DNA from: an uncultured Candidatus Saccharibacteria bacterium
Lineage (GTDB): Bacteria > Patescibacteriota > Minisyncoccia > Phycocordibacterales > WO2-35-19
Length of the DNA: 64,000 bases
Reading direction: 5' to 3'
Assembly: GCA_964630525.1 (NCBI GenBank)
Contig: CAZVUY010000003.1
Coordinates: 48,699-112,698, forward strand
Positions within the stretch are counted from its first letter, which is position 1. Each line of letters begins with the position of its first letter. Under the pieces are notes generated by a model, which made no database searches, was not told the origin of the DNA, and saw nothing but the letters and a program-made list of their open reading frames with translations. Of this stretch, positions 15,903 through 31,862 are shown piece by piece. The position numbers and the translations under genes were made by a program.

Positions 15903-15976
15903 TGCCGGGTCGTCTAATGGTAGGACATCAGGTTTTGGTCCTGAGTATCGGGGTTCGAGTCCCTGCCCGGCAGCCA
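15903..15976 (+). tRNA. tRNA-Gln (UUG), CCA encoded
   Basis: U1-A72 acceptor pair, anticodon loop UUUUGGU, T-loop UUCGAGU, terminal CCA. Confidence 0.8.
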
Positions 15977-16126
15977 AGTCGTGCGGCGTTCGAGACGCGT
16001 CAACATAACGCTTTTCTTGCTAAGTAAAGCTGATCCGTCTAGAGTGCAAAAACCCATAAAATTCTTTTTCGTGGTCGATTCCAGTCTTCTGGATTTCTAG
16101 ACCATAAAAAGCTATTATGAGCAATA

Positions 16127-17596
16127 ATGATAACTCGAAGATTGGAATTTTGGGCTGACAGCTTCCATGAGGGAAATTGGGCTTGTGAGGAGCTTTCCAA
16201 ATTTTTTAAGCTGAAAAACATTTCTTATGCAAAGGGTTTTATACCAGTCTTTATTTTCTCGATTGATAAAGACACGGAGCTTGAGGTTACCGTTTTGGGA
16301 TCGTATAAGAATTGGTCGCCCATTCCTAAACCAATAAGTGAGCTGTTAGAGTGGGGTAAACCAGATCTCGTTGCTTACGATGTAGAGGATGACAAAATTC
16401 TTTTTGCGATGGAAGAAACTGCCGCAGTCCCTACTGGTAACCAGGCATTACAACGTTGCGAGCGCATTTACGGAAGTCTTCGACTAGGCATTCCATTTTG
16501 GTATCTTTTGGGAGAATTCGGCCTCCATGTGGATGGTGGGGTTCGAAGAGATTCCATTTGGCCAACCGTTTTGGGTATCAAGCTAAGTTGTATTCAACGT
16601 ACACCCTGCATGGTTCTTCATTACTCAGACCAAGAGCATCCAGAAGATTACTCAGTCGGCGAAGGCGTTAAATCCTTATATACAGCTCTTGCTACAGAAA
16701 TTGAAATTTTCCTTGGTAAAAAGAAGCGGGCTGACCTGAACCAAGTTCTTTCTGAGCAATATGCTCACATGCTTAAGTTTGTAGAGAGTCAGGGCCATAA
16801 TCTAGTGAACTTTATTCCTAATAAAGATGTTCTTTATCACTCAGATACTCCAATGCGTCTGGCACAGCTGGTTACTTCAGGTGAAGTGTTGAGTAATGAT
16901 GATCTTGATTTCTTTAATTGGGGAAAGACTGATGAGCTCCCATCAGAGATTTATGAAAAAATAAGACCCGGAGGATCAATAAAAGAAGATGTTTTCGTAA
17001 AATCTTTAGAAGGTTTAGTGGAAAGCAAAAAGGCCTATACCTTGTCAGGAAACGCTGGTTCACGACCTCAGGATATTGAAAGTATTCGTGAATGGTTGAG
17101 TCAACAAAAAGCATTGTTTGAGGCGGGTAATACCACAAACGCAAAATTTACACTTAAAGAAGGCGATTTCCCTTCGAGTATTTCAGGTAGGAGGCATGTT
17201 ACGACTGCTAAGAACGTGTTTTATCTGGTCGATTCATGTGAAGACATCGAAAATGCATTGAAGTTAAGTTTCCCTAGACTTAGTAGTCTTGATCTAACAT
17301 CAAAGGAGATGCCGGCGTTCGTGTATATTTCTAATAGCTTAAAGCCTGGTCGAATTTTTGGTGACCCATTTACAGGTCAGTTGTCAGCTTTTGCAAATAT
17401 TTTTACAAAGAATGTGCTCGGTGATAAAACGAGAATCTCTATTGCTTACTATCCCCATCAAGTTCATACTCAACTATTAGATCGGAATGGCAAACTGAGA
17501 CGCAACAAGGGAATTGTATTGATGTCTGAACTTCTCGACTACGCTGTTTTTCTGGGTGGGGTTGTCGTGAACATGAAATCAGGAGAAATCATATGA
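16127..17596 (+). CDS. Hypothetical protein (489 aa), first gene of a putative restriction-modification / defence operon
   Basis: ORF whose stop overlaps the next start (ATGA). A weak PDLVAYDVEDD...AMEE region. No clear domain. Confidence 0.45.
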   Translation: MITRRLEFWADSFHEGNWACEELSKFFKLKNISYAKGFIPVFIFSIDKDTELEVTVLGSYKNWSPIPKPISELLEWGKPDLVAYDVEDDKILFAMEETAAVPTGNQALQRCERIYGSLRLGIPFWYLLGEFGLHVDGGVRRDSIWPTVLGIKLSCIQRTPCMVLHYSDQEHPEDYSVGEGVKSLYTALATEIEIFLGKKKRADLNQVLSEQYAHMLKFVESQGHNLVNFIPNKDVLYHSDTPMRLAQLVTSGEVLSNDDLDFFNWGKTDELPSEIYEKIRPGGSIKEDVFVKSLEGLVESKKAYTLSGNAGSRPQDIESIREWLSQQKALFEAGNTTNAKFTLKEGDFPSSISGRRHVTTAKNVFYLVDSCEDIENALKLSFPRLSSLDLTSKEMPAFVYISNSLKPGRIFGDPFTGQLSAFANIFTKNVLGDKTRISIAYYPHQVHTQLLDRNGKLRRNKGIVLMSELLDYAVFLGGVVVNMKSGEII

Positions 17597-18165
17597 TCAA
17601 ATACACTTTCAACATCAATGAGGAAATTGCTCGGTGGGTTACCGAGGTGTACGTACGCGATAATAAAAATCTAGATTGGTGGGTAGCTTTTACTAATCCT
17701 ATTGCTGGTCCTTGGAAGAAAATAACAGCACTAAACGGAGACGGAGTTCCTGTTGAGATTTACCGATTCGAAAGAGAGGGAGAAAGGCCGGATCTTATTT
17801 TGGTCAATGACACGCATAAGACAATACTAATTATCGAGGCAAAAGATTTTGTTCAGAAATTAGTAGCTGGTGAGCAAATGCGTAAATCTGCCCGTGTTAT
17901 TAAAGAAATTACTTCTATACTTAGAAATTGCGGTAATGAACATTGGGTATCACGTAAGGATTATAAAATTATTCCTTCGTTCTTATGGTATACAGATAAA
18001 CAAGATCTGATTAAGCCAGAGGATGAGTTGGTACGAGTAACTTATAAAACAGTAGCGGATGATGATTCTGAACTATTGAATATAGTGATCACAAAAGGTG
18101 AATCAGGAGATCTAAAGAACAACTTTGTCTACAATTCACAGATCACTGATGATCTAACTGTTTAA
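17593..18165 (+). CDS. PD-(D/E)xK nuclease-fold protein (candidate restriction endonuclease subunit)
   Basis: RPDLILVND...ILIIEAKD motif. Converges on the methyltransferase genes. Confidence 0.5.
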   Translation: MIKYTFNINEEIARWVTEVYVRDNKNLDWWVAFTNPIAGPWKKITALNGDGVPVEIYRFEREGERPDLILVNDTHKTILIIEAKDFVQKLVAGEQMRKSARVIKEITSILRNCGNEHWVSRKDYKIIPSFLWYTDKQDLIKPEDELVRVTYKTVADDDSELLNIVITKGESGDLKNNFVYNSQITDDLTV

Positions 18166-20030
18166 AATAAAGTGGAAGTTCTGGTAATTCTTTGGAGATA
18201 GGCGTAATTTTTGTCGAATAAGACCGTGTGCTTCAATAGGTTTTTTACTTCTCCCAATGAAGGTGAACCGATATCAAAAGTAGACTCAAGTATAGCTTCA
18301 TAAAGTTCCTTTATACTCTTTTTACCATCTCGCAAAAGATCCACAGCCACATTTGCAACATATTCCTCAATCTTTTTCGCGTTCTCTATTTCTCCAAGAA
18401 ACTCATCTCTAAGTTGGTAATAATCCTTATCACTTGTCGCAATCGGAATAATTACTTCATTTATTTTTCCGAGAGTGAGTGTATTCATACCCTCATTTAG
18501 GATGCATAGGATGATCATCCTATGCACAAGGTTTTTTGGAGCGGTCCCTCCGCGACTCAGTAAAACCTTTTTAGCTATTTCGGTTAGGTGAAAAAGATCC
18601 TGCTTCTTTTTTGGGGGATGCACTTTCTTTTCAAATACACAGTAGTAGTCTCCCACATAGCTTGTGTTTGAAGCCGTCTGTGATTTTGATGATACCACTG
18701 CAGGAATTTGATATTTTGCCTCAGTACAAACGAAAGATTTTTCTGAGAAAGACTCAAGAACGATCTTCCATGCACGGGGATCTAGATTATTGAAAGTCAT
18801 AATAATTTTTCCTCCTTTTTTCAGCTTGCGCTGAAATAGATCCACGATAATTGCTATATCTGCTCCGTACTTATCCCAGGAGCTTACGTATTCTTTTCTG
18901 TCAGAAACGATAATTTCGTCATCGTAGGAAACTCTTTTCTTGAGGAAGCCGTTCCAAATGGCAGAGAATTCTACATACGGAACATTATCTCCGTAAGGTG
19001 GATCAAAGAAAATACCATCGATGCTTTCATCCTCAAATTCCTCTAGCCCATTCTGAGCAGGTTTTAAATCAATTTTGGATGTCGCACCTGTATTTTTGTA
19101 ACTACTTGCGAGAGCCTCAAGTCCTTTAACAAATTTTTTGTATCTAGCCTGTAGGTGAATCACTGGATTTGTTTCAAGGTGTAATGGAGCAATCCAAAAA
19201 CCTGGGATAGTCCATGCAGGCCCGCCTGTACTCAGGTTATTTCTGTAAGGTATAAGTCGTGACGATTGCGCAACGGAAGATGTTAAAAGTAAGAGTGCAG
19301 CATTTCTAATAGAATCTTTTTTTATCTTATGGGCTTTATCGAAGAGTTGGGAAAGTACATAAAATGCTCTAGGGGTGAACAGGTCAGAAAGTTGCATTCC
19401 CGGAAAAGCCAGAATTCTACGATTAATCAATAAATTTTCACTGTCTATCCTGGGAATTTTCTGAATAATAGATTCCTGTTTTTCAATAGCCTTTTTATCT
19501 ATATAAACTTCATTATCACGAGTGATAATTTTTACGATCCTAGTGCCTGTAAACTTTTCAAAATTAAAATACAGTCTTTCGTCACATTTCGCGCAGTGGT
19601 ATTTAGACCCTTTTTTTATTGCATTATCAATTGATCCAATGGTGTTGCAAGAAGGACACTCTGATTCCATGCGATGCACTAAGTACCGGACGTCCTTTCC
19701 ATCGAGGGTATAGAGTTCCTTAAAAGAATCCGCAAACGAAATCAGGTTCTCAATTTCGTGATTAAATTCCTCCACAGTAGGGGGATTAACTGTGACTTCA
19801 GAAAGTAGTTGAGCTAACGGATTTATGTCGAAACCCCTAGAATTAATCCCCAGCTTTTTTGCCTCAGCCAAGAAAACTCCACTTCCACAAAAAGGATCTA
19901 CTACTAAATCACCAGGCTTAAAATGTGACCTTATATATCCATGTAGAATATTTGAAGGCTTTCGTGCCCAGTACTTATGAATTAGGTATTCATTGGGATG
20001 GGTCTCAGCCATCAGTGCTCTTGAGCTCAT
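18162..20030 (-). CDS. DNA methyltransferase (N6-adenine/N4-cytosine type)
   Basis: Motif I VVDPFCGSG and motif IV IFFDPPYG with a long intervening region. Confidence 0.75.
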   Translation of the reverse strand: MSSRALMAETHPNEYLIHKYWARKPSNILHGYIRSHFKPGDLVVDPFCGSGVFLAEAKKLGINSRGFDINPLAQLLSEVTVNPPTVEEFNHEIENLISFADSFKELYTLDGKDVRYLVHRMESECPSCNTIGSIDNAIKKGSKYHCAKCDERLYFNFEKFTGTRIVKIITRDNEVYIDKKAIEKQESIIQKIPRIDSENLLINRRILAFPGMQLSDLFTPRAFYVLSQLFDKAHKIKKDSIRNAALLLLTSSVAQSSRLIPYRNNLSTGGPAWTIPGFWIAPLHLETNPVIHLQARYKKFVKGLEALASSYKNTGATSKIDLKPAQNGLEEFEDESIDGIFFDPPYGDNVPYVEFSAIWNGFLKKRVSYDDEIIVSDRKEYVSSWDKYGADIAIIVDLFQRKLKKGGKIIMTFNNLDPRAWKIVLESFSEKSFVCTEAKYQIPAVVSSKSQTASNTSYVGDYYCVFEKKVHPPKKKQDLFHLTEIAKKVLLSRGGTAPKNLVHRMIILCILNEGMNTLTLGKINEVIIPIATSDKDYYQLRDEFLGEIENAKKIEEYVANVAVDLLRDGKKSIKELYEAILESTFDIGSPSLGEVKNLLKHTVLFDKNYAYLQRITRTSTLF

Positions 20031-21271
20031 GTTTTCTTAAGAATTACCATTAGGTCACAAAGGTTAATTCCAACGTCTCCACCTTTTCTTCGTTGGCTTG
20101 CAGCCCATGAAGCCTCAGTGAACTTAGGTATTCTGAGAGCTACTTTTTCCACATTATATACATCTTTCAATCTGTGGATTAGATTATGTGTGACAGGTAT
20201 ATATTGACCTTTGATAACAGTGTCGCCAATCATTAAGACAACTCTACCATCAGACTCTAAGTAGCCGTTTAGGTTTCGAAGCCCGTTCTCCATATCATTA
20301 AGATATTCCTCAACTTTTTCTGGCTTTCCAACTTTAAATGCTTCTCTAATTTCACCTTTTCGAATAGATGCATGATCTATATCAAGCCAGGCCAGTTCAA
20401 GTGAATTAACTCCACTGTATTTATATGAATTAAAGTAAGGTGGATGACAGATAATTAATTTAGCAACCTGGTCCTTGCTATTTGGCGTATCAAATATAGA
20501 TCGAACTTCAATATTAATAACCGACTTCCTGGTTTTGGGTAGTTCAGGGGCTGACTCCGCAATTTCTAATGCTTTTTTAAGAAAGAAAGGGAAGGCATCC
20601 TTTTCAGCCGTCTCCACATCTAGAAAAAGTCTCCCTTGTTGTGTTGTCGCCCGCGAAACCCTACGGACGATACCCAAGAAAGCAACCATTAAAGCGTCTT
20701 TAATTTCAGAAGAGTAACTCAGATTCTTAACCCCTGTTCGAATCTTTTCAAGAGAAATAATTGTTTCTGGTAGAAACCAATGATCGGGGTTTCTTAGTCC
20801 CGTTAAAACAGGTTTTTTTATCCTTTTTGAATTTGTATAAAAATCTCTTACTTCATTGAGAGCTTGGAGATAGTCTTCCTTGTCAATCTTTGTAGTTTTA
20901 ACTCGTGATATCAGTACAGACAGAGGGTTGATATCGAAGCAAGAAGCCTGTCTCTTTAATAAGAGGGCTTCTAGTGCTGTGGTTCCACTACCACACATGG
21001 GATCAATAACCAAATCATTTTCCTTCGTGTATTCTTTAATTGCATGTCTTGCAATAGGAGGGGGGAATTTACCAAAATATCTGAAAATGCCATGAGATAA
21101 ATAAGACAGTGTTTTGTTTGAGGCACTAGAAGTCCAAACCTCGATATCTTTTGAAAGTTCCTTGATTCTGCTCCTATTTATTAAATCAGCATACTTTTCC
21201 TGAATTTCGTGGCTTGAAAAATCAACAATTTCAAGTTCTGGGATATTATCTTTTACGTTATAGATAGACAT
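20027..21271 (-). CDS. DNA methyltransferase (N6/N4 type), second copy
   Basis: VIDPMCGSGTT motif I and ICHPPYF motif IV. Its stop overlaps the start of the other methyltransferase gene. Confidence 0.7.
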   Translation of the reverse strand: MSIYNVKDNIPELEIVDFSSHEIQEKYADLINRSRIKELSKDIEVWTSSASNKTLSYLSHGIFRYFGKFPPPIARHAIKEYTKENDLVIDPMCGSGTTALEALLLKRQASCFDINPLSVLISRVKTTKIDKEDYLQALNEVRDFYTNSKRIKKPVLTGLRNPDHWFLPETIISLEKIRTGVKNLSYSSEIKDALMVAFLGIVRRVSRATTQQGRLFLDVETAEKDAFPFFLKKALEIAESAPELPKTRKSVINIEVRSIFDTPNSKDQVAKLIICHPPYFNSYKYSGVNSLELAWLDIDHASIRKGEIREAFKVGKPEKVEEYLNDMENGLRNLNGYLESDGRVVLMIGDTVIKGQYIPVTHNLIHRLKDVYNVEKVALRIPKFTEASWAASQRRKGGDVGINLCDLMVILKKT

Positions 21272-21321
21272 CAGCAATGTATATAGAATATGTTTGCAAT
21301 GTAATTATATCAGTAAAGTCT

Positions 21322-22638
21322 TTAATTTAACGATACCCGCTTGTTGATAAGTGTAATTTTCCCCCTTAAACAGCCGAGCAATTCTCTTTTTTCAAAATCT
21401 TTCCCTTCTCTAAGAATATATTTAGCATAATTACGAATATCTATTTCAGGTATATCAGGCCTTTCCCTGTTACCTAGTAGTACCCTTTGAAATTTTTTAT
21501 ACCTCTCCACTTCTTCTTTTATCTTCTTATTTATGCCGAGTTCGTCTATCTCGATCTGATCAATTAATTTCTCAAACTGAGTGATTAGATCATTCTCGTT
21601 GATATAGTTACCCTTACAATCCACCCCTTTACTCCTTGAACATCCGTAGTAGACATGTCTGTTCACGCTTCCACTCTTTAGCTTCTTAAATTTCTCCTCT
21701 GCTGTTATTCCGGAGCTGCATAGCCCACAAACCATCAACTTGGTAAAAGCAAACTCCTTATTTGAACCTCTAACGTAATCTATTCGCATATTTTCTTGCA
21801 CCATATCAAACAATTCTTTCGTTATGATAGGTTCGTGCTTGCCCTTATACCAATTACCGCTTTTTGTTGGAAACTCAAATGTGCCGTAATAGAAGTGATT
21901 GCATAATATCCGATGAACATTTCCTATGCTTAGGTTTTTATTTCCATTGGCTGTCCTAAAATTAAGATCAAATTTAAGCCAATTATAAATTTTCCTTGTT
22001 GACCACTTTTCGTAGGCTGCTTTTTCAAACATTTTCTTAATAATTGGCGCTCTCTCTGGATCTATCATCACATATCCCTTTCTATCGATTCTCTTTTCCG
22101 TAAGGTAGCCAGTCGGTGCAACAGATGGCCACAATCCCATTTCTACTCTAGCTCTCAACCCTCGTTTTACGTTTATGCTTTTATTATCGTTTTCAAGTTT
22201 TGCCTGAGAACATAGAATCATTAGTAGAAATTTTTCGCTCGGAGTGTTCGTAAAGGTTTGGCCGTAGGTTCTAATTTGTGTCAGTTTTTTCTCATCCATT
22301 AAATCAACAATTGATCCCAGATCTCCGGCGTTTCTAGACAATCTATCTGGATGCCAAACTAGTATTCCGTTGAATCTATCTCTCCTTAGATCCTCAAGAA
22401 TCTCTTTAAATACTGGCCGTTGCCCTGAATCCTTGGCAGAATGGGCTTCTCGTCGTATGTCTACAATCTCAAGGCTTTCTCGCTCAGCTATAGCGAGCAT
22501 TTCTTTAACCTGAGACTCAATTGATAAGGCCTGCTTTTCATCTTGTTCTGTTGATTTACGAGCATATAAGCAATACCTAACTTTTATTACTGGTATTGGT
22601 AATGGATTGCCGATTAGGGCAGTTGCTTGCGTTTCCAT
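21322..22638 (-). CDS. Large serine recombinase (integrase/transposase type)
   Basis: N-terminal YARKSTEQDEKQALSIESQ serine catalytic domain, a recombinase domain and a C-terminal Cys-rich zinc ribbon. ATG at 22638. Confidence 0.8.
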   Translation of the reverse strand: METQATALIGNPLPIPVIKVRYCLYARKSTEQDEKQALSIESQVKEMLAIAERESLEIVDIRREAHSAKDSGQRPVFKEILEDLRRDRFNGILVWHPDRLSRNAGDLGSIVDLMDEKKLTQIRTYGQTFTNTPSEKFLLMILCSQAKLENDNKSINVKRGLRARVEMGLWPSVAPTGYLTEKRIDRKGYVMIDPERAPIIKKMFEKAAYEKWSTRKIYNWLKFDLNFRTANGNKNLSIGNVHRILCNHFYYGTFEFPTKSGNWYKGKHEPIITKELFDMVQENMRIDYVRGSNKEFAFTKLMVCGLCSSGITAEEKFKKLKSGSVNRHVYYGCSRSKGVDCKGNYINENDLITQFEKLIDQIEIDELGINKKIKEEVERYKKFQRVLLGNRERPDIPEIDIRNYAKYILREGKDFEKRELLGCLRGKITLINKRVSLN

Positions 22639-22968
22639 GTATATATTGATGACAGACCCCAAAACCCTGCATAGCTATGCAGAACTAAGAAAACGTCGCA
22701 TACTCGCGTTTAGGGCTTAGCAAAAGCTCTGTAGTGCGATAGATTCAAATGGATAGCCGTAAGTGCTATCATGTAAATACAACTGAATATTGGCCCGTAA
22801 AGGGCAGGACCTAAACCCGAAAGGGCATGGTCCCAAATTCGCAAGCAACATAGAGAACCCGTCATTAGGGCGTTGCTTGCGTTACTAGGGGAAACCCTAG
22901 TAGAGGAGTCCGCGAGGCCCTTCCTAGTGGCGGGCTTTCTGTTTCTATTAAAAACGCAAGCAACAAAC

Positions 22969-23847
22969 ATGATTAAGAAAATATTACTGGGGCTAATTGG
23001 AGGCTTTGTCCTACTCGTATGGATCGGATCAATGCTTCCAGATGTCCCAAGGGAGGAAGTAAGCCAAGATAAAGTTTCTGTCTCATCTGATGTTCAAGAA
23101 GCAACTGCTCCTCAAATATCAATACAAGAAACTAGTTCAGTTACGAATCAATCTCCTACTACTGAAACCGCAACCAAGTCAGTCCAAACGACTCAATCAA
23201 GTCCCACTACAGCCCCGCAATACACATATTATTCAGTAACTGATGTGGTAGACGGAGATACGGTCAAAGTGAATATAAATGGAACTGTAACAACTCTTCG
23301 ATTGATTGGAATGGATACGCCAGAGACTGTTGATCCCAGAAAACCAGTTCAATGCTTTGGTAAAGAAGCATCTAACAAAGCAAAAGAATTACTTTCAGGA
23401 AAGAAAGTAAGACTTGAGATGGATCCAAGCCAAGGAACTCTCGATACTTATGGCAGAACTCTTGCTTATATCTACCGAGAAGACGGTTTGTTCTTTAACA
23501 AATACATGATTGAGCAGGGGTATGCCCACGAGTATACCTACCGAACTCCATACAAATACCAGGCTGAATTTAAAACTGCTCAAAAGACAGCTCAAACCAA
23601 TCAGGCGGGACTGTGGTCTCCAAGTACCTGTAACGGAGATACGACCTCCTCTTCCGAAACTGTCCCAGCCACTACTTCATCAGGTGGAAAGTTCTACACC
23701 TCATCACACTACAGTGCGAAATATTACTATCCAGAGGCATGTAATGGTTGGGAAAGTCTAAGTCCAACTTATCTCAAATCATTCGATACCCTAGAAGCTT
23801 TATTGGCTTCTTATCCTTCGAGAACTAAGAGCCCACAGTGTCAGTAG
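22969..23847 (+). CDS. Membrane-anchored thermonuclease (SNase family)
   Basis: N-terminal TM helix, a Ser/Thr-rich linker, then an SNase core LIGMDTPETV...GRTLAYIY. Confidence 0.75.
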   Translation: MIKKILLGLIGGFVLLVWIGSMLPDVPREEVSQDKVSVSSDVQEATAPQISIQETSSVTNQSPTTETATKSVQTTQSSPTTAPQYTYYSVTDVVDGDTVKVNINGTVTTLRLIGMDTPETVDPRKPVQCFGKEASNKAKELLSGKKVRLEMDPSQGTLDTYGRTLAYIYREDGLFFNKYMIEQGYAHEYTYRTPYKYQAEFKTAQKTAQTNQAGLWSPSTCNGDTTSSSETVPATTSSGGKFYTSSHYSAKYYYPEACNGWESLSPTYLKSFDTLEALLASYPSRTKSPQCQ

Positions 23848-24247
23848 TCTGGTTACTTTCTGTCTTGCCCCTGCTTGAGGTCGGCTCATTTTTACCATGT
23901 CTAATGATCACCTCAAAACCTTCCGATCTTTTTACTCCCATTAATTCAGCAATCAACCCTTTCGGTCTTGGTCGTACGTAGTTTTTATGATGATTATCAA
24001 GCCAATACTTCACAGCCCACTTTTCACCCCTTTGCATAGCCAAAAATAATTTACTATGTGCCAAATCATTTCCTGTTTCTTCTCCTAACTGCATGGCCTT
24101 ATCCATTTCTTTTCTGAACGCAGGATCTTTTTCTCGCCATTGGTAAACTGTGTTTCTTGCGATTCCAAGATTCTTGCAGACAACCGAGACATTCGGAAGT
24201 AGGCATAATTCCTCCAGAAGCTTTTTAGATTTTCGGTACTTCTTCAT
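23825..24247 (-). CDS. HTH protein, phage terminase small-subunit-like
   Basis: N-terminal HTH LLEELCLLPNVSVVCKNLGIARNTVYQW. Sits next to a ParB-MTase gene, as in phage packaging regions. Confidence 0.4.
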   Translation of the reverse strand: MKKYRKSKKLLEELCLLPNVSVVCKNLGIARNTVYQWREKDPAFRKEMDKAMQLGEETGNDLAHSKLFLAMQRGEKWAVKYWLDNHHKNYVRPRPKGLIAELMGVKRSEGFEVIIRHGKNEPTSSRGKTESNQTTDTVGS

Positions 24248-25508
24248 CTCTTAATACTTCAGCAGTTAACCCGGTGAGTTTTTCCCAACGCTTAACAATG
24301 AGATCGCAAAATATTGGCTCGAGCTCAATCCCATAGACTCTACGCTTTAATTGTTCTCCTGCGATTAGGGTACTACCAGAACCTAGGAAGCTATCCAAAA
24401 TCACGTCTCCAGGCCTTGTGCAGCGTAGGATGGCCTTCTCATGGAGCTTCGGTGGCTTTGAGGTAGCATGTTCGTAATCTTTGCCTGCCAATCTCTTAAC
24501 AGCCCAGATATCTCCAATCTGATCTAACATCTCGTTTCCTGTACTAATTTCTTTATTTAAAACCTCGTTAAGATCTTGCTTATCAGTTGAGAGATACGGA
24601 GAGCCTTTAGTGCCATAGGTACAAGGTTCGTAACACTTGTTGAATGCAACTGTAGGAGTGGGGTTGTGGCCATTCTTTACCCACAAGCACACTCGCTTAT
24701 TGTTAATTCCAAGTTCGGCGTAAAGAGTCTGCATGAGCCAAATGTATCGCTGATCCGACCAGTAAAAAATGTGGAAATCTTTCTTGGCTACGGAAAGAGC
24801 GTTTACCATAGAACTTCTAATTAGATTTCTGTACGCCTCTTCAGTGCGATTGTCCTCGACTTTACCACCGTAACCTCTTTTACCGCCGATACCTTTGTCA
24901 TAACTTACGTTCAGGTTATAGATAGGGTCCGAATAGATCATGGACGTCTTCTCATCCTCGAATAGTTTATGGACCACTTTTGGGTCAGTAGAGTCGCCAC
25001 AAATAATCTTGTGCTTACCCAGAGTGATAACATCTCCGAGTTTAGTCTTAGGTTCCCTAATCTTCTTGACCTCTTTTTCTACATCGAAGTCGTCGTCTTC
25101 AACTTCTGCATCCTTAGCCCAGATGTTATCTAACTCAATTTGGTCAAAACCGATATCCACCAGTAGATCCACATCAAAGTCCTTGAGTTTCTCGAAATCC
25201 CAGTCTCCAATCACGGCGTTACTCGTGAGCATATATCTTTTGTATTCATCTTCCGTTAGTTTACGATTTGGTACTCTCACTTCAATTTCTTCCTTACCTC
25301 TGCCAAGAATTTGGAGGGCTCTGATTCTTTGATGTCCGGCGCAGATCTTGCCATCTAGGTCTATTGCTGGAATTTCTACTAGATTAAACTTCTTTAAACT
25401 TTTCTTAAGATCTTCCATTGTCTTGTCCGACATAACCCTTGGGTTCTTAGGGGAGGGTAAGAGGGCGTCGACTGTACGTTTTTCCGTATGCCATATAAGT
25501 TTTTTCAT
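24225..25508 (-). CDS. ParB-like nuclease domain / DNA methyltransferase fusion
   Basis: ParB motif LVEIPAIDLDGKICAGHQRIRAL. Methyltransferase motifs SDPIYN and ILDSFLGSGST. ATG at 25508. Confidence 0.75.
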   Translation of the reverse strand: MKKLIWHTEKRTVDALLPSPKNPRVMSDKTMEDLKKSLKKFNLVEIPAIDLDGKICAGHQRIRALQILGRGKEEIEVRVPNRKLTEDEYKRYMLTSNAVIGDWDFEKLKDFDVDLLVDIGFDQIELDNIWAKDAEVEDDDFDVEKEVKKIREPKTKLGDVITLGKHKIICGDSTDPKVVHKLFEDEKTSMIYSDPIYNLNVSYDKGIGGKRGYGGKVEDNRTEEAYRNLIRSSMVNALSVAKKDFHIFYWSDQRYIWLMQTLYAELGINNKRVCLWVKNGHNPTPTVAFNKCYEPCTYGTKGSPYLSTDKQDLNEVLNKEISTGNEMLDQIGDIWAVKRLAGKDYEHATSKPPKLHEKAILRCTRPGDVILDSFLGSGSTLIAGEQLKRRVYGIELEPIFCDLIVKRWEKLTGLTAEVLRDEEVPKI

Positions 25509-25658
25509 ATTGTTGGTGATTAGCTTTGTAACCACTTCTAGACCTTACGCAAAACGGGCCCACAACGCCGATCCCGTAGGATCTGCTTTGTGGGCCCGTA
25601 GGCTCCGAATCTATGTAAGTGTGCTTAAAGTTTATATCCACCCGTAAAGGGTGTCAAG

Positions 25659-26345
25659 ATGCTTTACAAAATCTGTGGATTGGGCGATAATGAAAGTATG
25701 CATCAAACACAGCAGAAATTACTTGACCTGATTGGTCGCCAAGACCTGGGGAAAATGAGCCTAAGGCAGATTGCTAAGCTCGTGGGGGTTGAAAATAAGC
25801 CTCAGATCGTGAAGCATCATCTTCTTCAGCTTGAGAAGGCGGGGCTTATTCAGCTTAACCTCGAAAGTGGCATAATCCGTCTCACTAGCCGAGGGTTTAA
25901 CCCATCTCCTGTTAAGAGCATTTTCTACTCTATTCCCATTGTGGGTGCCGCTAACTGTGGCCCAGCAAATATTTTTGCAGAAGAAAGAGTTGAGGGGTAT
26001 CTAAAGGTATCTTCAAAAATGCTTCCCCGCAGGAGAAATGATCTCTATGTGCTTATAGCTGACGGACCATCCATGAACCGGGCGGAAGTGGTTGATGGCA
26101 AAACCATCGATAGTGGCGACTTCGTTATTGTTGACCGTTCATATAATACCCCTAAGGATGGTGACATCGTCGTGGCTGTTATTGACGGCATGGCGACAAT
26201 CAAAAGATATCGGGAAGATAAGGATCACGATCAAATTATTCTCGAGGCGGAATCTACTGAGAAATTTCTTCCAGTCTTTATCCACGAGGGAGACGATTTC
26301 GTGATTAGCGGTAAGGTTATCAATGTTATTAAGAATCCAAAATAA
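25659..26345 (+). CDS. S24-peptidase repressor (CI/LexA-like)
   Basis: N-terminal wHTH and C-terminal S24 domain (ADGPSMN ... GDIVVA ... TIKR). Divergent from the ParB-MTase gene. Confidence 0.7.
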   Translation: MLYKICGLGDNESMHQTQQKLLDLIGRQDLGKMSLRQIAKLVGVENKPQIVKHHLLQLEKAGLIQLNLESGIIRLTSRGFNPSPVKSIFYSIPIVGAANCGPANIFAEERVEGYLKVSSKMLPRRRNDLYVLIADGPSMNRAEVVDGKTIDSGDFVIVDRSYNTPKDGDIVVAVIDGMATIKRYREDKDHDQIILEAESTEKFLPVFIHEGDDFVISGKVINVIKNPK

Positions 26346-26347
26346 TT

Positions 26348-26587
26348 ATGGTTAAGAAAAATATTCACACGGTCTACAACAGTGACCGCAAGATGTGGGA
26401 GACAAAGAAGGAAGGACAAGCAAAACCACTCGCTTCATCACACACTAAGGATGCGGCAGAGGAGAAGTCTATTCGCGAAGCAAAGAAAGCAGGGGTTGAG
26501 CATGTGATCCACAACAAGGACGGCAAGATCTCTGACAAAGACAGTTACGGCAAGGACTCCAACCCTCCAATCGATAGGAAACACTAA
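26348..26587 (+). CDS. DUF2188-like small protein
   Basis: SHTKDAAEEKSIREAKKAG...VIHNKDGKI...SYGKDSNPP pattern. Confidence 0.5.
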   Translation: MVKKNIHTVYNSDRKMWETKKEGQAKPLASSHTKDAAEEKSIREAKKAGVEHVIHNKDGKISDKDSYGKDSNPPIDRKH

Positions 26588-26599
26588 TTACCAACTCCG

Positions 26600-27520
26600 A
26601 TGATGACTGTCTTTACATGGCTACTAGCTAAATTTGCTGAAACGGCATTTGGCGGTGTAATCATGGAAGGACTTGAGCACTATTTCCCAGATTTATTTAA
26701 GGGAAAGACAAAAGAATTGGTAGATGTTTATGAGAAAAGAATTAGGGAGAAGAATAAGAAAATTAGAGAGCTAGAAAAAGCAAAGACAAAGGAACAGCAA
26801 CGCCATGATGAAGAGGAATCAAGACTTATTGATTCATTGAAAAGAAGGAGCATAGCGACGGATAAATTGATTGAGCAGTACCACAAACCCCTGAATGCAA
26901 TATTAATTTCGTATGCCACACAACGAGAAGATGTGGGTGGGAGAAATAAAGAGTCCCATTTTCTTAAAGAAGAGTTAGAGAAATATAACTCTAAGTACCT
27001 AGGTGGAACAGATGTTCTTATTCCTCCCGCCCATGTTCCTTCAGGTATAAAAAGCCAGGGCGATTTAAAGAAATGGTTTGAGGAAGATATTTTGAAGGGT
27101 CGATATTGCAAGATAAAGTTTATGATCTTGTTTGATATAAAGAAGTCTGCTTTTTGGGGCACATATTTGCCCTACATTCAAAAGAAACCCATGCATCACA
27201 GTGTTGGTGAAGTCCTAAGTGTCGGAGATGTTTTCACAGAGGAGCAAATTAATAAATTGGCTCTAAGTGAGATTATTAAATCTGGCGATATAGCTTGGTT
27301 GGCATCATCAGTTATATCTGAGGCTGAAATAGAGATCATATTAAGAAACCAAAAAAAGATTGAGCAAGAGATTGGCAATCCTTCTTTAAGAGTGGTTGCT
27401 GATGGTGATATTAAAGTAAAATTATCCTCTGCATTATCAAAATTTATACAAAGTGCTGATTCTGTGGCTGACGCAATTATTGATGAGGCCAAGTTTTGGA
27501 ATGAAAAGATTAAGGGTTAA
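26600..27520 (+). CDS. Hypothetical protein (306 aa)
   Basis: ORF. Hydrophobic N-terminus and a charged coiled-coil segment. Confidence 0.4.
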   Translation: MMTVFTWLLAKFAETAFGGVIMEGLEHYFPDLFKGKTKELVDVYEKRIREKNKKIRELEKAKTKEQQRHDEEESRLIDSLKRRSIATDKLIEQYHKPLNAILISYATQREDVGGRNKESHFLKEELEKYNSKYLGGTDVLIPPAHVPSGIKSQGDLKKWFEEDILKGRYCKIKFMILFDIKKSAFWGTYLPYIQKKPMHHSVGEVLSVGDVFTEEQINKLALSEIIKSGDIAWLASSVISEAEIEIILRNQKKIEQEIGNPSLRVVADGDIKVKLSSALSKFIQSADSVADAIIDEAKFWNEKIKG

Positions 27521-27533
27521 AGATTAAAATCTT

Positions 27534-27908
27534 ATGATTAGATGCTCAAATTGCAAATCAATATTGGTTAAGGAGATAGACATGAATTATGCCTCTGTCA
27601 AAAAAGAAGGTGAGCCCGCTGATTCCTCAGAACTTTTACCAGAGTACTTTCAGTGCGAGACTTGTAGTCATGCCTGGTTTGCTGATCCGTCTGCTAAAAA
27701 ACTATATCTTGAATATAAGGAGTTGGTACCAAAAACAGAAATTATATCTCAGATTGCACGACCCCGTGGCACATATACTATCTATCATATTAAGCCAGAA
27801 GAACTTTCTCGGAGATTAGAAATTGCTCGTATACTTACTGAGGCACATCAGCATGATTTAAATATAGATGCTGGGGACTGGTATGAAATATTTCAAGATG
27901 CTAGATAG
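27534..27908 (+). CDS. Zinc-ribbon hypothetical protein
   Basis: CSNC...CETC motifs. Confidence 0.4.
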   Translation: MIRCSNCKSILVKEIDMNYASVKKEGEPADSSELLPEYFQCETCSHAWFADPSAKKLYLEYKELVPKTEIISQIARPRGTYTIYHIKPEELSRRLEIARILTEAHQHDLNIDAGDWYEIFQDAR

Positions 27909-27933
27909 TTAAAGATATTAAATTACAGACGAT

Positions 27934-28560
27934 ATGGAAACTTTCATATTAAACATTTATCAAAAATTAGGAGATTACTTTACAGGAAGTAAAAGAAGGA
28001 GGTTGTTATATGCACTTGTTGTAATATTCTTTGTATCTATTTTAGTAATTTCGACCTGTTTTAAATTATCTGTTTCAATCGATACTCTTTATTGGGTTTT
28101 TAGTAGTCTCGTTCAGGCACTTTTAGCACTTGTTGCATTAATGGGAGTCGTATCAGTATTTAAATTACAATCACTTAAATCATCTGAGGACCAGTTTTTG
28201 ATGATTGCAAGAGAAAGTACTTATACCTACTACATCGGAGCGCCACCATCAACTATTGAATTATTGTTATCAAAAATAGAACCAGTCATATCTTCTAATA
28301 ATTTAGACAAATCTAACCACCTGCACATTCTCAGAGATAACATTATGGAAGTAAGATCATCTAAGGAATTAGTGGTGAATTATGCTACAAAATATGCAAT
28401 ATTTACCTTTCTAGTTGTTCTGTTATCCCTACTTTTTCTAATGTGCACAACTTATATTTCTAGGTTCTATTTGGGTGTACCCTCCCTGTACCTCATGTTT
28501 GTGTTAACCGCATATTCTTTATTTCTTGCGATGAAGGGATTTTCTGGCTCTATTAGATAA
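27934..28560 (+). CDS. Hypothetical 4-TM membrane protein
   Basis: Four hydrophobic helices. Confidence 0.45.
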   Translation: METFILNIYQKLGDYFTGSKRRRLLYALVVIFFVSILVISTCFKLSVSIDTLYWVFSSLVQALLALVALMGVVSVFKLQSLKSSEDQFLMIARESTYTYYIGAPPSTIELLLSKIEPVISSNNLDKSNHLHILRDNIMEVRSSKELVVNYATKYAIFTFLVVLLSLLFLMCTTYISRFYLGVPSLYLMFVLTAYSLFLAMKGFSGSIR

Positions 28561-28627
28561 TGTCCATAAATAAATGCTGAAAAGTGTCACTTTTGTCACT
28601 TTTTGCTATCCTTAAAGAAACATATAT

Positions 28628-29263
28628 ATGGACCAGATAGTCTACATACTCACGAATGAAGCCATGCCCGGCTATGTAAAGATTGGGATTACTGGTGATT
28701 TACAGACAAGGATTAAGCAACTAAGTAGCACCTCGGTTCCCGTCCCTTTTGAATGTTTTTATGCCAAAAAGGTAAAAGATGCTCGGTTTGTAGAAAATAG
28801 GTTACAAGCCACATTCTCTCAGGACAGAGTCGATTCTGGGGCAGGTAGAGAATTTTTCATGATCCAACCCGAGCAGGCAGCAGCCGCCCTGAGTCTTGCT
28901 GAAGGAGAGGAAATCATATTAGGTGACTCAACCATATCTGAACAGGAGCGAATTGCTATTGAGGAAATCAAAAAACGCCGTCCTGGATTTAACTTTTCAA
29001 TGGTAGGTATAAAACCAGGTGCAATATTAACTTTCTCTTTAGATGAATCAATTACTTGTGTGGTTCATGATTCAAAGAAAGTTGAGTTTAATGGAGAGGT
29101 GACCTCACTATCAGATGCAGCTATGAAAGTTCTAGAATCAAAAGGTCTAAACTGGAAAGCGGTTTCTGGACCTGGTATCTGGATGTATGAAGGAGAGAAT
29201 CTATATGAAAGAAGAATTAGGATGGAGGAAGAAGGGGATGGATCTATTTCTGAGAATAATTAA
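28628..29263 (+). CDS. T5orf172 / MUG113 (GIY-YIG-like) domain protein
   Basis: VYILTNEAMPGYVKIGIT...R.KQL...PVPFE...GREFF motif. Confidence 0.55.
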   Translation: MDQIVYILTNEAMPGYVKIGITGDLQTRIKQLSSTSVPVPFECFYAKKVKDARFVENRLQATFSQDRVDSGAGREFFMIQPEQAAAALSLAEGEEIILGDSTISEQERIAIEEIKKRRPGFNFSMVGIKPGAILTFSLDESITCVVHDSKKVEFNGEVTSLSDAAMKVLESKGLNWKAVSGPGIWMYEGENLYERRIRMEEEGDGSISENN

Positions 29264-29482
29264 CGTGTACGAGACGCGTCATTCGGGAGTGTTAAAATAA
29301 ATCTATTCCGTCAAGCAGGGCTTGACCGACCACGGTTCTAACACGAGGCGGCCAGCAGCCATGTGAGATAGACTGAGACGCCTAAATCAGTCATATTTCT
29401 CAAAGTATTTTTTGAACGAGTCATGGGCTCGAACCGTCTTTGGATGGTGTCCTAAACGGGTCAAGATTGATAAAATATAAAT

Positions 29483-29923
29483 ATGAAAATTATTAGTCTA
29501 AATACTTGGGGTGGGCGTGCAGGAAAGGAAGGGTTACTTTCTTTCTTTAAGGAGCATAAGAATGATACGGATATCTTTTGTCTCCAAGAAATTTGGTCCG
29601 CACCCTATAGTCATTTAGAGGGATACAAAGCTGGCGGTAAGGAGATTAATCATGCGGAAATCATGGTTCAGGGTCTTCAGGAAATCACTGAGCTTTTATC
29701 TGATTTTGTTCCATATTTCCGACCACACCATGGTGATCACTACGGTCTTTTGATGATGGTAAAGAAAGATATCGAGGTGAAAGTTGAGGGAGAAATTTTT
29801 GTACACAAGCACAAGGGATATATTCCTGAAGGTGCCTCGCCCTACAACTTTGAGACCATGACAGCCAGCAGTCATATACTAAGTCAGGTGACTAGGATAC
29901 CTCGGCTTATTTATCCAAAATGA
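29483..29923 (+). CDS. Endonuclease/exonuclease/phosphatase-like protein, short and possibly truncated
   Basis: N-terminal MKIISLNTWGG resembles an EEP start. At 146 aa it is shorter than typical EEP proteins. Confidence 0.4.
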   Translation: MKIISLNTWGGRAGKEGLLSFFKEHKNDTDIFCLQEIWSAPYSHLEGYKAGGKEINHAEIMVQGLQEITELLSDFVPYFRPHHGDHYGLLMMVKKDIEVKVEGEIFVHKHKGYIPEGASPYNFETMTASSHILSQVTRIPRLIYPK

Positions 29924-30882
29924 TACCAGTTCAAAACCCAAAAAATAAAATTATTGTAGCCGCCATTCTTACTTTGCTTATGATCGTAGGTCTTGTAATC
30001 TGGTATTTAAATCAACCAAAACCAGCATCGGACCATATCCAGGAATTAACTATGGAAGAAGTAGAAGCAGGCTATGAAGTCAGTGCTCGCGCTATGGCTT
30101 CGAGCTCTCCTGATTTTGCTCGTCGAATGGCAATAAATGAATTACCTGCTATTGGAGATAGTAATTATAAAAAGGATGATAATTATGTATATTTTGGTAC
30201 TGATATTGTAGTGGGGGCAGATCCAAAAACTTTTGAAATAATAAATGAGGAATTCGCAAAAGATAAAACTCATGTGTATTACGAAGGAGATATGTTGGAA
30301 GATTCTAACTCTCCAACTTTTGTTCCAGGTCCGATTCCAAAGGATAAATATAGCGTGTATCTGCTTTTGATTTGTAAAGATAACCAATGGGATCAGTGTT
30401 ATCAAAAAGTAGCAGGAGCAGATCCAGCAACTTTTGAACCTGTAAAGTATGGATTTTATAAAGATAAATCTCATATCTTCTACAACACAAAGTTGGTTCC
30501 CGAGGCGGATGTAAACACTTTTGCTATTTATGATGGAGGTAAATATGACTATACCTATGGTTATGATAAGAACTATATTTTTGTAATTGGATACGACCGA
30601 GTCGGAGTGATTAAAGAAAAGTGTAGTGACTTAAATCGAATTGGTGGCTACTATTTGAAATGCGACGACAAAGTTTACTATGAAGATAAACTTTTGGTAG
30701 GTGCTGATGTAAATACTATGAGACCCGTGGGAGTTACAAGTAACTATGCGAAAGATTCAAAGACCGTTTACTTCGATGGAGAGGTTGTGGTAGGTGCAGA
30801 TGCGTCAACCTTTGAGATCGGAGATGGAATAAATGCGAAAGATAAAAATTACACATATCGATTTGGGAAGAGGGTGGAATAA
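29920..30882 (+). CDS. DKNYY repeat membrane protein
   Basis: N-terminal TM helix. Repeated YF/YY...GAD..TF units (KTHVYYEGD, KSHIFYN, KVYYEDK, KTVYFDG). Confidence 0.6.
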   Translation: MIPVQNPKNKIIVAAILTLLMIVGLVIWYLNQPKPASDHIQELTMEEVEAGYEVSARAMASSSPDFARRMAINELPAIGDSNYKKDDNYVYFGTDIVVGADPKTFEIINEEFAKDKTHVYYEGDMLEDSNSPTFVPGPIPKDKYSVYLLLICKDNQWDQCYQKVAGADPATFEPVKYGFYKDKSHIFYNTKLVPEADVNTFAIYDGGKYDYTYGYDKNYIFVIGYDRVGVIKEKCSDLNRIGGYYLKCDDKVYYEDKLLVGADVNTMRPVGVTSNYAKDSKTVYFDGEVVVGADASTFEIGDGINAKDKNYTYRFGKRVE

Positions 30883-30883
30883 T

Positions 30884-31393
30884 ATGGAAATAAAAACTGA
30901 ATTTGAATATCAAGGGAAAACATATCCAGTAACCTATAAGGAAGCTGATCCGACTAATGATTTGGAAGGAAAAATATTAAATGGAGTTCATGCATATTGT
31001 TTCTGTGGAGACAAATTCGTTTTAGTCTACAATCAAAAGAAAGATCACTATACTCCTCCGGGTGGCGGTATTGAACCTGGAGAAACTTATGAACAAGCCA
31101 TTATTCGAGAAGTAAAAGAGGAATCCAATATGAAAGTAATCAGCCAAGAATTAATTGGTTACCAAGATGTGGTAGATATCGCGAACGGAGATCGGGTTAT
31201 AAGGCAGGTTAGATCATTTTGTATCGTGGAGCCGTATGGAGATTTTGTTTCTGATCCAGATGGAGATATCACTGCAATTAAATTGATTGATCCCAAAGAT
31301 TACAAACAATATTTCGACTGGGGTAAAATTGGAGACAGAATAATGGAAAGAGCTTTGGAAATATACAATGGAAAATCAACCTCAACAATTTAA
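30884..31393 (+). CDS. NUDIX hydrolase
   Basis: PPGGGIEPGETYEQAIIREVKEESN. ATG at 30884 with a GGGTGGAATAAT RBS. Confidence 0.7.
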   Translation: MEIKTEFEYQGKTYPVTYKEADPTNDLEGKILNGVHAYCFCGDKFVLVYNQKKDHYTPPGGGIEPGETYEQAIIREVKEESNMKVISQELIGYQDVVDIANGDRVIRQVRSFCIVEPYGDFVSDPDGDITAIKLIDPKDYKQYFDWGKIGDRIMERALEIYNGKSTSTI

Positions 31394-31862
31394 TATCGAA
31401 AGTAGCCCAATGGAAGAAGCTTATGAGCTTCTTGAAGCCTCGACTCCTTTAGAGTTATCTCAAAACTATACGAAAGCAGAACAGCCGATATTCATTTCTC
31501 AAGAATGGGACTATGAAAATCCGGAGCAAATACAGAATAAAGTTAAAGATATTTTGGAAGCTGTGAATCCCAGTACCCTAACCGAAGAAGAACAAGATTG
31601 GAGGCAAGAAATACTCTGGTTCTGGTATCACCATGCGATTAGTTGTGCCATTTGGAAAAAAGATAGAGCCAAAGCGATTGAATATTCCAACAAAGCACTC
31701 TCACTTCAAGACGAAAATCATCCGAATAAAATAACAAAAGTATTAAGTCTCTTGGTAAACGATAAAGTGGAGGAAGCAGAAGAATTTGTAAAAACTGTAG
31801 ATACCGACAGAGAAGAAGCTGAGGGATTGATTGAGGATTATAAAGAAGGAAAATTCTTCTAG
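31368..31862 (+). CDS. Hypothetical acidic protein
   Basis: ORF with no recognisable domain. Confidence 0.4.
   Translation: MENQPQQFNIESSPMEEAYELLEASTPLELSQNYTKAEQPIFISQEWDYENPEQIQNKVKDILEAVNPSTLTEEEQDWRQEILWFWYHHAISCAIWKKDRAKAIEYSNKALSLQDENHPNKITKVLSLLVNDKVEEAEEFVKTVDTDREEAEGLIEDYKEGKFF

Follow-up and report, generated by a model that had tools for sequence, protein, structure and literature searches.

SatelliteFinder recognizes phage-inducible chromosomal islands (PICIs) from a core comprising an integrase, pri-rep, a regulator of the AlpA, Stl or MerR type, and the terminase small subunit TerS, together with the absence of tail, holin, portal and connector genes (PMC10085698). Here, we compare these and other described satellites and islands with a 13.4-kb island in a 64,000-nt stretch of DNA (the window, to whose positions all coordinates refer), which an earlier note had described as a PICI- or satellite-like gene set at the end of a tRNA-Gln gene. 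The island, whose insertion point is exactly the 3' end of tRNA-Gln(UUG), carries a phage-type control and packaging core together with defense cargo. It resembles PICIs and the Staphylococcus aureus pathogenicity islands (SaPIs) in its size (10-15 kb), its site-specific integration, its master repressor and a TerS of the kind able to redirect a helper terminase, as well as in lacking capsid, tail and lysis genes and in carrying accessory defense genes at its ends (PMC10085698, PMC6092414).

Set against the description of the PICI core, the island has an integrase and TerS, and is free of tail, holin, portal and connector genes. However, the integrase is a large serine recombinase (LSR), whereas known PICIs use tyrosine integrases (10.1101/2020.12.28.424599), there is no primase-replicase (pri-rep), and the repressor is an S24 protein of LexA/CI type rather than one of the Stl, AlpA or MerR type, such that the island falls outside the PICIs. 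The S24 repressor is nevertheless a functional analogue of the PICI regulator, from a different family. Further differences are the presence in the core of a fusion between a ParB-like N-terminal domain and an N6/N4 DNA methyltransferase (ParB-MT), the LOOT RNA, a host that appears to belong to the Candidate Phyla Radiation (CPR), and the terminase large subunit TerL found in most relatives of the island. Capsid-forming PICIs (cfPICIs) likewise carry their own TerS and TerL (PMC10085698), but their 11 core components further include capsid, portal, protease and head-tail adaptors, which are absent both from the island and from its relatives, where TerL alone is found.

The PICI-like elements (PLEs) of Vibrio cholerae share an LSR integrase with the island, and some of them a TerS homologue (PMC9618062, PMC10085698). 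They differ in their target (a tRNA 3' end in the case of the island), core genes and host, and no evidence for other PLE-specific genes was found in the island. Nearest in ecology and layout are the tycheposons and marine virion-encapsidated integrative mobile elements (VEIMEs), which are environmental, flank tRNA genes and carry variable cargo, some of them being PICI-like with terS and a minority using serine recombinases (10.1101/2020.12.28.424599; PMC9618062). The island shares with the tycheposons tRNA-proximal integration with partial tRNA repeats. In contrast, tycheposons and VEIMEs mostly encode tyrosine recombinases together with primase, helicase and polymerase, and reside in marine cyanobacteria and other plankton, whereas the island has an LSR and no replication genes, and a core of terminase, ParB-MT and S24 repressor with a LOOT RNA is not described for them. 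Finally, temperate phages with LSRs (of the phiC31, Bxb1, A118 and SPbeta type) have the same LSR architecture and a repressor divergent from the early operon, and the ParB-MT, TerS and TerL block is of phage origin, but the elements considered here are only 8.5-16 kb long, with no structural, lysis or replication genes within their att boundaries. Neither the island nor its complete 16.3-kb relative L171 (Lnnn labels denote related metagenomic loci) has the structural, lysis and replication modules of a complete prophage.

We consider it very likely that the island is a discrete member of a family of integrative LSR elements, and assign a probability of roughly 60% to the overall reading that it is an integrated, site-specific element at a tRNA 3' end that is mobilized as a helper-packaged satellite. 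Taken by itself, the dependence on a helper that would make the island a true satellite is close to an even bet, or slightly below.

Ends of the island and tRNA targeting

The tRNA gene, the recombinase and the sequences that delimit the island are as follows (tRNAs were predicted with ARAGORN, RNAs were compared with Rfam, and proteins with Pfam, PHROGs, PADLOC and the PDB).

15903-15976, + strand: tRNA-Gln(UUG) (ARAGORN; Rfam tRNA, 58.6 bits), the integration target, whose 3' end abuts the element
15977-16004, + strand: left-end junction motif AGTCGTGCGGCGTTCGAGACGCGTCAAC, the proposed P' arm of attL
21322-22662, - strand: large serine recombinase, 446 aa (Pfam Resolvase, Recombinase and Zn_ribbon_recom; phrog_95 integrase, 9e-65)
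29264-29281, + strand: second, directly oriented copy of the end motif (CGTGTACGAGACGCGTCA)
29316-29361, + strand: right end, the proposed P arm and core of attR, consisting of a 24-mer and then a degenerate tRNA 3' end
29362-29383, + strand: third copy of the motif, TGTGAGATAGACTGAGACGCCT, the proposed B' arm, that is, the sequence that followed the tRNA before insertion

In most of about 32 related loci, a motif of the form A-N-TCGTGCTAGCACGAGA(C/A)GCGT directly follows the tRNA that faces the LSR, and its class is independent of which tRNA precedes it. A second variant, ...TATCGAG(N)AGACC..., is found in seven loci (L198, L205, L207, L209, L210, L213 and L216). The motif is not present after the tRNA-Gln of LSR-free relatives, nor after neighboring tRNAs of the same clusters, and thus belongs to the element. 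In the window, the left-end motif contains the 12-nt repeat CGAGACGCGTCA (15991-16002), and CGAGACGCGTC(A) occurs exactly twice in the 64 kb, at 15991 and 29270 on the same strand, where 0.33 occurrences of CGAGACGCGTC would be expected with one mismatch allowed. The copy at 29270 begins 7 nt past the stop codon of the T5orf172 gene, the last gene of the island.

The right end is marked by a family-conserved 24-mer, CAGGGCTTGACCGACCACGGTTCT, at 29316-29339, which is identical in L171, has one mismatch in L168, and has 4-5 mismatches in L143, L144, L179 and L180; in most of these six loci it is followed by ...CGGCCAGCA. In L171, the 24-mer lies at the same distance from a tRNA-end-like core as in the window, where GGCCAGCAGCCA at 29350-29361 is a 10/12 copy of the tRNA-Gln 3' end GCCCGGCAGCCA, with GCAGCCA common to both. 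The third copy of the motif, which comes directly after this core, resembles the junction of L151, AGTCGTGATAGCACGAGACGCGT. The far ends of L144 and L171 share the same layout of a tRNA-end copy and then the motif, the tRNA 3' end being directly repeated over 18 nt in L144 (8.5 kb from the tRNA) and over 19 nt in L171 (16.3 kb from the tRNA), which bounds elements of these two lengths.

We propose that attL corresponds to the tRNA/motif junction and attR to the 24-mer...GCAGCCA/motif junction. The element spans 15977 to approximately 29361, which retains the left end that had been placed at the tRNA-Gln 3' end and replaces the former right end at 29290. The ends share only GCAGCCA and the motif, in disagreement with the long tRNA-derived att repeat that the previous description implied. 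A classical att repeat was also sought directly, and the last 15-24 nt of tRNA-Gln are unrepeated in the window at up to 2-3 mismatches. Similarly, an Rfam scan of the right-end region (29150-29500) returned nothing, and no tRNA T-arm fold is seen in the 24-mer by inspection. The presence of the motif in the B' arm may reflect half-sites that are alike through binding by one protein, or a site that had been occupied before.

An independent assembly of these boundaries is available from Logan (SRR13355620), in which window positions 15919-29342 form a contig of their own (13,424 bp, 0 mismatches, seen in 3 samples), with the right flank in a separate 45.6-kb contig starting at 29351. The assembly graph thus branches at the proposed right end. 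Its definable ends, its conserved junction motif and its own contig mark the island out as a discrete mobile element next to the 3' end of tRNA-Gln, as had been proposed.

The recombinase has the LSR domains in the expected order (PF00239, 8.6e-23; PF07508, 1.1e-14; PF13408, 3.9e-6) and, being the sole recombinase present in the island, is the putative integrase and excisionase of the element. Going downstream from the LSR, the first tRNA gene encountered in 32 loci is encoded on the opposite strand, with its 3' end facing the LSR, and the reverse orientation is seen in no locus. The interval ranges from 89 to 9040 nt (median 4.3 kb; 5346 nt in the window), and the tRNAs comprise 16 for Gln (UUG or CUG), 5 each for Trp and Ser, 3 for Glu, 2 for Asp and 1 for Asn, with DnaX just beyond tRNA-Gln in five loci, as in the window.

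These data bear on the alternative that the island is a composite of two unrelated adjacent insertions, namely a restriction-modification (R-M) block (16127-21277) and the block from the LSR to the T5orf172 gene, with the adjacency of the tRNA being coincidental. The two blocks do differ in GC content (0.386 for the R-M block and 0.417 for the core), the LSR gene lies mid-island rather than at an end, and LSRs are not classically known to target tRNAs. However, the element-specific motif sits between the tRNA and the R-M genes and not beside the LSR, the LSR and the tRNA are separated in 32 relatives by 0.09-9 kb of variable cargo, with a single tRNA orientation, and the independent assembly has both blocks on one contig. 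We therefore regard a composite origin as highly improbable.

We also note that L186 has two tandem copies of the junction motif after tRNA-Glu (17228-17291), and a partial copy 15.7 kb away (approximately 1572-1588), which may be the footprint of serial integrations.

The packaging and control module across the family

Between the SNase-domain gene next to the LSR and the cargo on the right, the island carries a compact set of divergently transcribed features.

23825-24247, - strand: TerS-like helix-turn-helix (HTH) protein, 140 aa (weak Pfam and PHROG TerS matches)
24225-25535, - strand: fusion of an N-terminal ParB-like domain with an N6/N4 DNA methyltransferase, encoded at the head of the module operon
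25554-25599, - strand: palindrome with 21-nt arms (inverted repeat, 90% complementary), between the divergent promoters
25659-26345, + strand: LexA/CI-like S24 autopeptidase repressor (Pfam Peptidase_S24, 7.5e-19, full-length PF00717; phrog_4 repressor)

A metagenome scan with an alignment of the LSR yielded at least 556 relatives, and in the best 80, which were examined, the LSR is 58-73% identical to that of the window. Searches of IMG/VR with the LSR and ParB-MT returned contigs in which both are co-linear and co-oriented with the HTH gene. To establish what recurs across the family, open reading frames (ORFs) from 96 loci were clustered all against all, which gave just five recurrent families: the LSR (86), ParB-MT and other methyltransferases (56), TerL (39), TerS (36) and the S24 repressor (22). 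Across the 96 loci, there is no recurrent family of capsid, portal, tail, lysis or replication genes, and the complete L171 element (16.3 kb, 11 genes) contains no structural, lysis or replication gene. As neither capsid, portal nor replication genes recur, and as a complete element has none of these, satellite-like is probably the best reading of the family. In the island itself, Pfam and PHROGs assign capsid, portal or TerL to none of the ORFs, in agreement with the initial annotation, and none matches primase, helicase or Rep families in Pfam, PHROGs and PADLOC. The same annotation had grouped the recombinase, the TerS-like protein and the repressor as genes of one element, and together with ParB-MT they indeed form a module that is conserved across dozens of unrelated contigs. 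The nearest deposited LSRs are streptococcal prophage integrases (27-28% identity), the nearest deposited TerLs are from Mu-like phages (27% identity), and a megablast of the island against deposited phages gave no match. We found no prior description of this recombinase-element family in the literature searched.

Identification of the HTH protein as TerS draws on both its position and its family. The window protein matches six PHROG families, four of which are annotated as terminase small subunit, and gives no match in a PDB search when used alone. As a family, 31 of 33 members match phrog_4044 (terminase small subunit, best 1e-13), and the best PDB match of the family profile, which is weak (E 0.023), is the TerS of Sf6, gp1. 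The window protein retains the five residues that are invariant in the family. Moreover, about 28 relatives have the TerS-like gene directly upstream of TerL, and a TerL homologue immediately follows the HTH gene in about 70% of the relatives in which the interval between TerS and LSR is visible, which validates the otherwise weak assignment. In five IMG/VR contigs, a protein of 483-537 aa that matches phrog_38 (terminase large subunit) at 1e-71 to 1e-85 is encoded in the slot that separates the HTH gene from the LSR. By position and, as a family, by sequence, the HTH protein is thus predicted to be TerS.

ParB-MT, which is kept together with TerS and the LSR in relatives, matches phrog_498 (7e-86), with the ParB-like part at residues 16-162 (phrog_620) and Pfam N6_N4_Mtase at residues 198-414. 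The repressor gene is divergent from it, and repressor homologues occupy the same divergent position in about 22 loci. The repressor relative of L082 shows a weak LexA_DNA_bind match. In translation, the window repressor is LexA-like in its N-terminal region, and VGAANCGP provides a Cys-Gly site, GPSM a Ser and ATIKRY a Lys, which we take, by analogy with LexA and UmuD, to be the cleavage site and the catalytic pair. From its translation, the repressor is accordingly predicted to be an S24 autopeptidase of the LexA/CI type with its catalytic residues intact. Between the divergent genes, a sigma-70-like promoter site is found on the minus strand (25657-25629), and the palindrome, read on the same strand, forms a GC-rich hairpin (-36.6 kcal/mol) and then UUUUG in the leader of the ParB-MT operon. 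A hairpin with a T-run is found at the same place in at least 12 of 23 relatives. The role of the palindrome may be that of an operator, or of a terminator in the leader that requires antitermination.

The window copy lacks TerL, and the loss of TerL with retention of TerS recurs in the family, often as a tidy operon of ParB-MT, TerS and LSR with gaps of 32-111 nt. This loss fits a SaPI-like dependence on the TerL of a helper, and fits decay as well. Decay is the basis of a second alternative, in which the island is the remnant of a larger temperate phage or of a full-length element that has become fixed and is kept for defense, with TerS and the LSR idle. Consistent with this, the missing TerL is present in the majority of relatives, variants without TerL or without the module are scattered over the LSR tree, the relative with the closest LSR (L144, 73% identity) keeps just the LSR, a fragment of the SNase gene and cargo, and the island has no replication gene detectable with Pfam and PHROGs. 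On the other hand, the core ORFs are all intact, including the invariant TerS residues and the catalytic residues of the repressor, both conserved ends are present with the independent assembly breaking at each of them, the tidy operons without TerL resemble a recurrent architecture, and the structural genes that could have been lost are seen in no relative. On balance, we consider a decaying remnant to be unlikely.

Several rearranged or unusual members of the family were also observed. A 55-kb contig (IMGVR_UViG_3300032737_000190; L083 and L084) carries two diverged modules of ParB-MT, MT2, TerS, TerL and LSR, approximately 37 kb apart and in the same orientation, each of them followed by a giant ORF in convergent orientation (1629 aa and 1526 aa). 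In L198 (5764-9660), the block of ParB-MT, MT2, TerS and TerL is inverted relative to the LSR, with a LOOT RNA just downstream of the LSR, from which it follows that the module can be rearranged. In L150, an S-adenosylmethionine (SAM) riboswitch (62.3 bits; 5923-6029, - strand) sits in the leader of a 264-aa gene that is divergent from the ParB-MT operon, at the place where other members carry the S24 repressor.

Proposed mobilization cycle and significance

The gene content suggests how a helper-packaged satellite of this type would operate. The repressor would hold the operon off until DNA damage or a signal from a helper phage led to its self-cleavage. The LSR would then excise the element by recombining attL (the tRNA end and motif) with attR (the 24-mer and GCAGCCA), giving a predicted attP junction in which 29316-29361 is joined to 15977 onward, and a predicted empty attB in which tRNA-Gln ...CCCGGCAGCCA is joined to TGTGAGATAGACTG.... 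TerS would direct the terminase to the DNA of the element, with full-length relatives using their own TerL and the window copy that of a helper phage, as is the case for SaPI-type satellites. Because the element encodes no capsid, its DNA would leave in capsids supplied by the helper, and in a new cell the LSR would reinsert it at a tRNA 3' end. In the resident state, the cargo would protect the host, and ParB-MT may either protect the DNA of the element or take part in recognition of the packaging site.

A number of observations weigh against this reading. Neither a helper phage nor an excised circle or a packaged form was seen, and a scan of IMG/VR with the far-end sequence for the excised attP form gave 12 chance matches and no family member. 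The window copy has neither TerL nor a recognizable replication gene, its TerS-like protein taken alone has all its Pfam matches under the cut-offs, and the losses of TerL or of the whole module that are scattered over the LSR tree could also fit decay. LSR att sites are short, with inverted half-sites around a central dinucleotide; no obvious inverted symmetry of this kind is found in the proposed att sites, and copies of the motif in direct orientation flank the proposed core on either side. Furthermore, the boundary model is complicated by the motif-bearing B' arm, which points to tandem accretion or to previous occupancy of the site. Finally, for most of the related loci, a Patescibacteria host is presumed only.

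The genomes of Patescibacteria (CPR) are tiny, most of these bacteria are uncultured, and few mobile elements have been described in them; we found no description of satellite-type elements in this group in the literature searched. The family described here, with its at least 556 members, has a clear, compact architecture and definable ends. It would offer a concrete mechanism for the movement of defense systems among CPR bacteria, including R-M systems, Shedu SduA-type, SMODS-domain and SIR2-like-domain proteins and OLD-family nucleases, as well as a set of LSRs with natural tRNA-end targets and candidate att sites. It also adds a satellite-like design in which a terminase is present without a capsid, and in which TerL is recurrently lost and TerS kept. 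More tentatively, and with somewhat less confidence than in helper dependence itself, we suggest that these elements constitute a new class of satellites specific to bacteria of the CPR/Patescibacteria type, defined by a complete terminase, ParB-MT, an SOS-type repressor and a tRNA-aimed LSR in the absence of capsid and replication genes, with LOOT as a dedicated regulatory RNA tied to the recombinase gene, and that these minimal elements serve as a main vehicle of defense exchange among these reduced genomes.

LOOT RNA, cargo genes and flanking sequence

The remaining features of the island are an RNA upstream of the LSR and the cargo genes.

16127-17596, + strand: Type II nicking endonuclease, large subunit of a restriction endonuclease (REase), 489 aa (PADLOC PDLC03392, E 1.9e-142, full length)
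17593-18165, + strand: 190-aa ORF overlapping the REase stop codon (listed from this overlap and its operon position)
18162-20030, - strand: Type II DNA methyltransferase 1, 622 aa (PADLOC PDLC03367, 7e-135, full length; Pfam N6_N4_Mtase)
20027-21277, - strand: Type II DNA methyltransferase 2, 416 aa (PADLOC PDLC03239, 1.4e-105, full length)
22808-22923, + strand: LOOT RNA (Rfam RF03000; 63.2 bits against a gathering threshold of 46.4, model positions 1-121 of 121)
22969-23847, + strand: SNase-domain protein (Pfam SNase, 2e-25; PADLOC candidate 'SNc+LTD', 2.6e-47)
26348-26587, + strand: DUF2188 small protein (Pfam, 2.2e-12)
26600-28560, + strand: three lineage-specific ORFs (306 aa, 124 aa and 208 aa)
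28628-29263, + strand: T5orf172/GIY-YIG-like protein (Pfam T5orf172, 7e-17; PADLOC candidate defense gene PDC-S57, 2.8e-66)

The LOOT RNA is encoded on the strand opposite to the LSR, at a distance of 146 nt from the start of the LSR gene, and precedes the ATG of the SNase gene by 46 nt. A covariance model built from 8 copies was run on the window and 95 related loci, and LOOT was found in the window and in 48 of the 95 loci. Of these 48 loci, 34 have it on the strand opposite to the LSR and 109-217 nt upstream of it, five have it 48-82 nt after the LSR stop codon on the same strand, and nine have it elsewhere (copies include L150:8839-8961(-), L086:2076-2195(-), L156:9767-9884(-) and L143:9740-9856(-), with about 40 more loci). 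Compensatory changes are seen at 15 of 20 predicted pairs among the 8 copies, and the gene downstream of LOOT varies between loci. LOOT may be the leader of a cargo gene, a small RNA, or a regulator of the divergent LSR promoter. We also considered a bridge-RNA-like guide function, but the longest matches to the cognate tRNA and junction (6.33 nt) are no different from those to non-cognate ones (6.25-6.27 nt), and this candidate was set aside. Weinberg et al. 2017 (PMC5737381) do not treat LOOT in their main text, and the literature searched yielded no published genomic context of this RNA. The position approximately 140 nt upstream of, and divergent from, LSR genes provides a first consistent genomic context for this orphan RNA.

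All of the genes listed in the earlier note were recovered in the island with Pfam, PHROGs and PADLOC. Its "restriction-modification-like" module is an R-M module indeed, although the qualifier understated it, as a complete R-M system is found. The nicking-type REase, which has a weak PDB match to BsmI, is translationally coupled to the 190-aa ORF and is accompanied by two methyltransferases, a layout that we take to match that of BsrDI, BtsI and other heterodimeric Type IIS enzymes. The 190-aa ORF has no family or PDB match (Pfam, PHROGs, PADLOC and PDB), and gene order suggests that it is the small REase subunit; its sequence gives no support for a small subunit of the BspD6I type. The SNase-domain protein has a hydrophobic N-terminus, MIKKILLGLIGGFV, and its gene occupies the slot that holds TerL in relatives. 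Among the three ORFs at 26600-28560, the 306-aa protein has a hydrophobic N-terminus and a charged, coiled-coil-like stretch, the 124-aa protein a CxxC...CxxC arrangement, and the 208-aa protein several hydrophobic segments. None of them has a Pfam, PHROG, PADLOC or informative PDB match, nor a homologue among the 96 related loci, and they are probably cargo (a membrane/Zn-ribbon set).

The island thus has three slots filled with anti-phage cargo: the Type IIS-like R-M system, SNase-LTD, and PDC-S57/T5orf172 with the membrane/Zn-ribbon trio. The first slot, between the LSR and the tRNA, holds a Type III R-M system in L082. In L171, it is filled by an Eco57I-type methylase with a PLD/SNF2 helicase protein, to which a Shedu SduA-type protein is added in L158. 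The second, beyond the repressor, holds OLD-family nucleases in L082 and SMODS-domain and SIR2-like-domain proteins in L156. The third is a single gene in the gap between TerS/TerL and the LSR, which is SNase-LTD in the window and, as homologues in the same slot, in L144 (72%), L151 and L197.

Such a distribution of cargo raises the question of whether the island might be a defense island of another kind, transferred by its LSR via vesicles, transformation or generalized transduction, in which ParB-MT, TerS and TerL would sabotage the packaging of invaders. Defense cargo in every variable slot, the lack of a replication module, and the many relatives that consist only of LSR and cargo would all be in line with this, as would the fact that the TerS-type proteins of known satellites double as interference factors (PMC9618062; PMC10085698). 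However, TerS with TerL, a ParB-type domain and an SOS-type repressor make up the control and packaging set of a temperate phage, and the co-linearity of this set with the integrase over 45-73% protein divergence is hard to explain by interference alone. We consider this explanation improbable, slightly more so than a decaying remnant, and retain the helper-packaged satellite as the preferred reading.

With regard to the host, the DnaX encoded beside the island has its best relatives in metagenome-assembled genomes (MAGs) of Candidatus Taylorbacteria, Paceibacteria and Vogelbacteria (51-54% identity), and the order DnaX and then tRNA-Gln is also kept in those CPR MAGs. Judged from this gene and its neighborhood, the host appears to be a Paceibacteria/Taylorbacteria-like member of the CPR/Patescibacteria, in line with what had been surmised for it. 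An empty site was sought in the closest species representatives, where synteny does not extend beyond DnaX and tRNA-Gln, so that none is definable there. Exact-protein look-ups returned only contigs of one Logan assembly, which gave the contig breaks and no empty site.

The GC content of the island (0.396) is below that of the outer flanks (0.440-0.442), and remains low (0.36-0.40) in the right flank at 29362-32000, which begins with the third copy of the end motif. This flank contains a 146-aa ORF that spans positions 1-87 only of the 225-position Exo_endo_phos profile, a DKNYY-repeat gene that overlaps it and, next, a NUDIX gene, and it may have been left behind by an older insertion that used the same tRNA. 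Farther along, the host has a LexA-like S24 gene of its own at 36462-37028, beside typA, and the protein encoded at 39069-39857 has a PEP-CTERM sorting motif (2.3e-6), which is unexpected in a genome of the Patescibacteria type.

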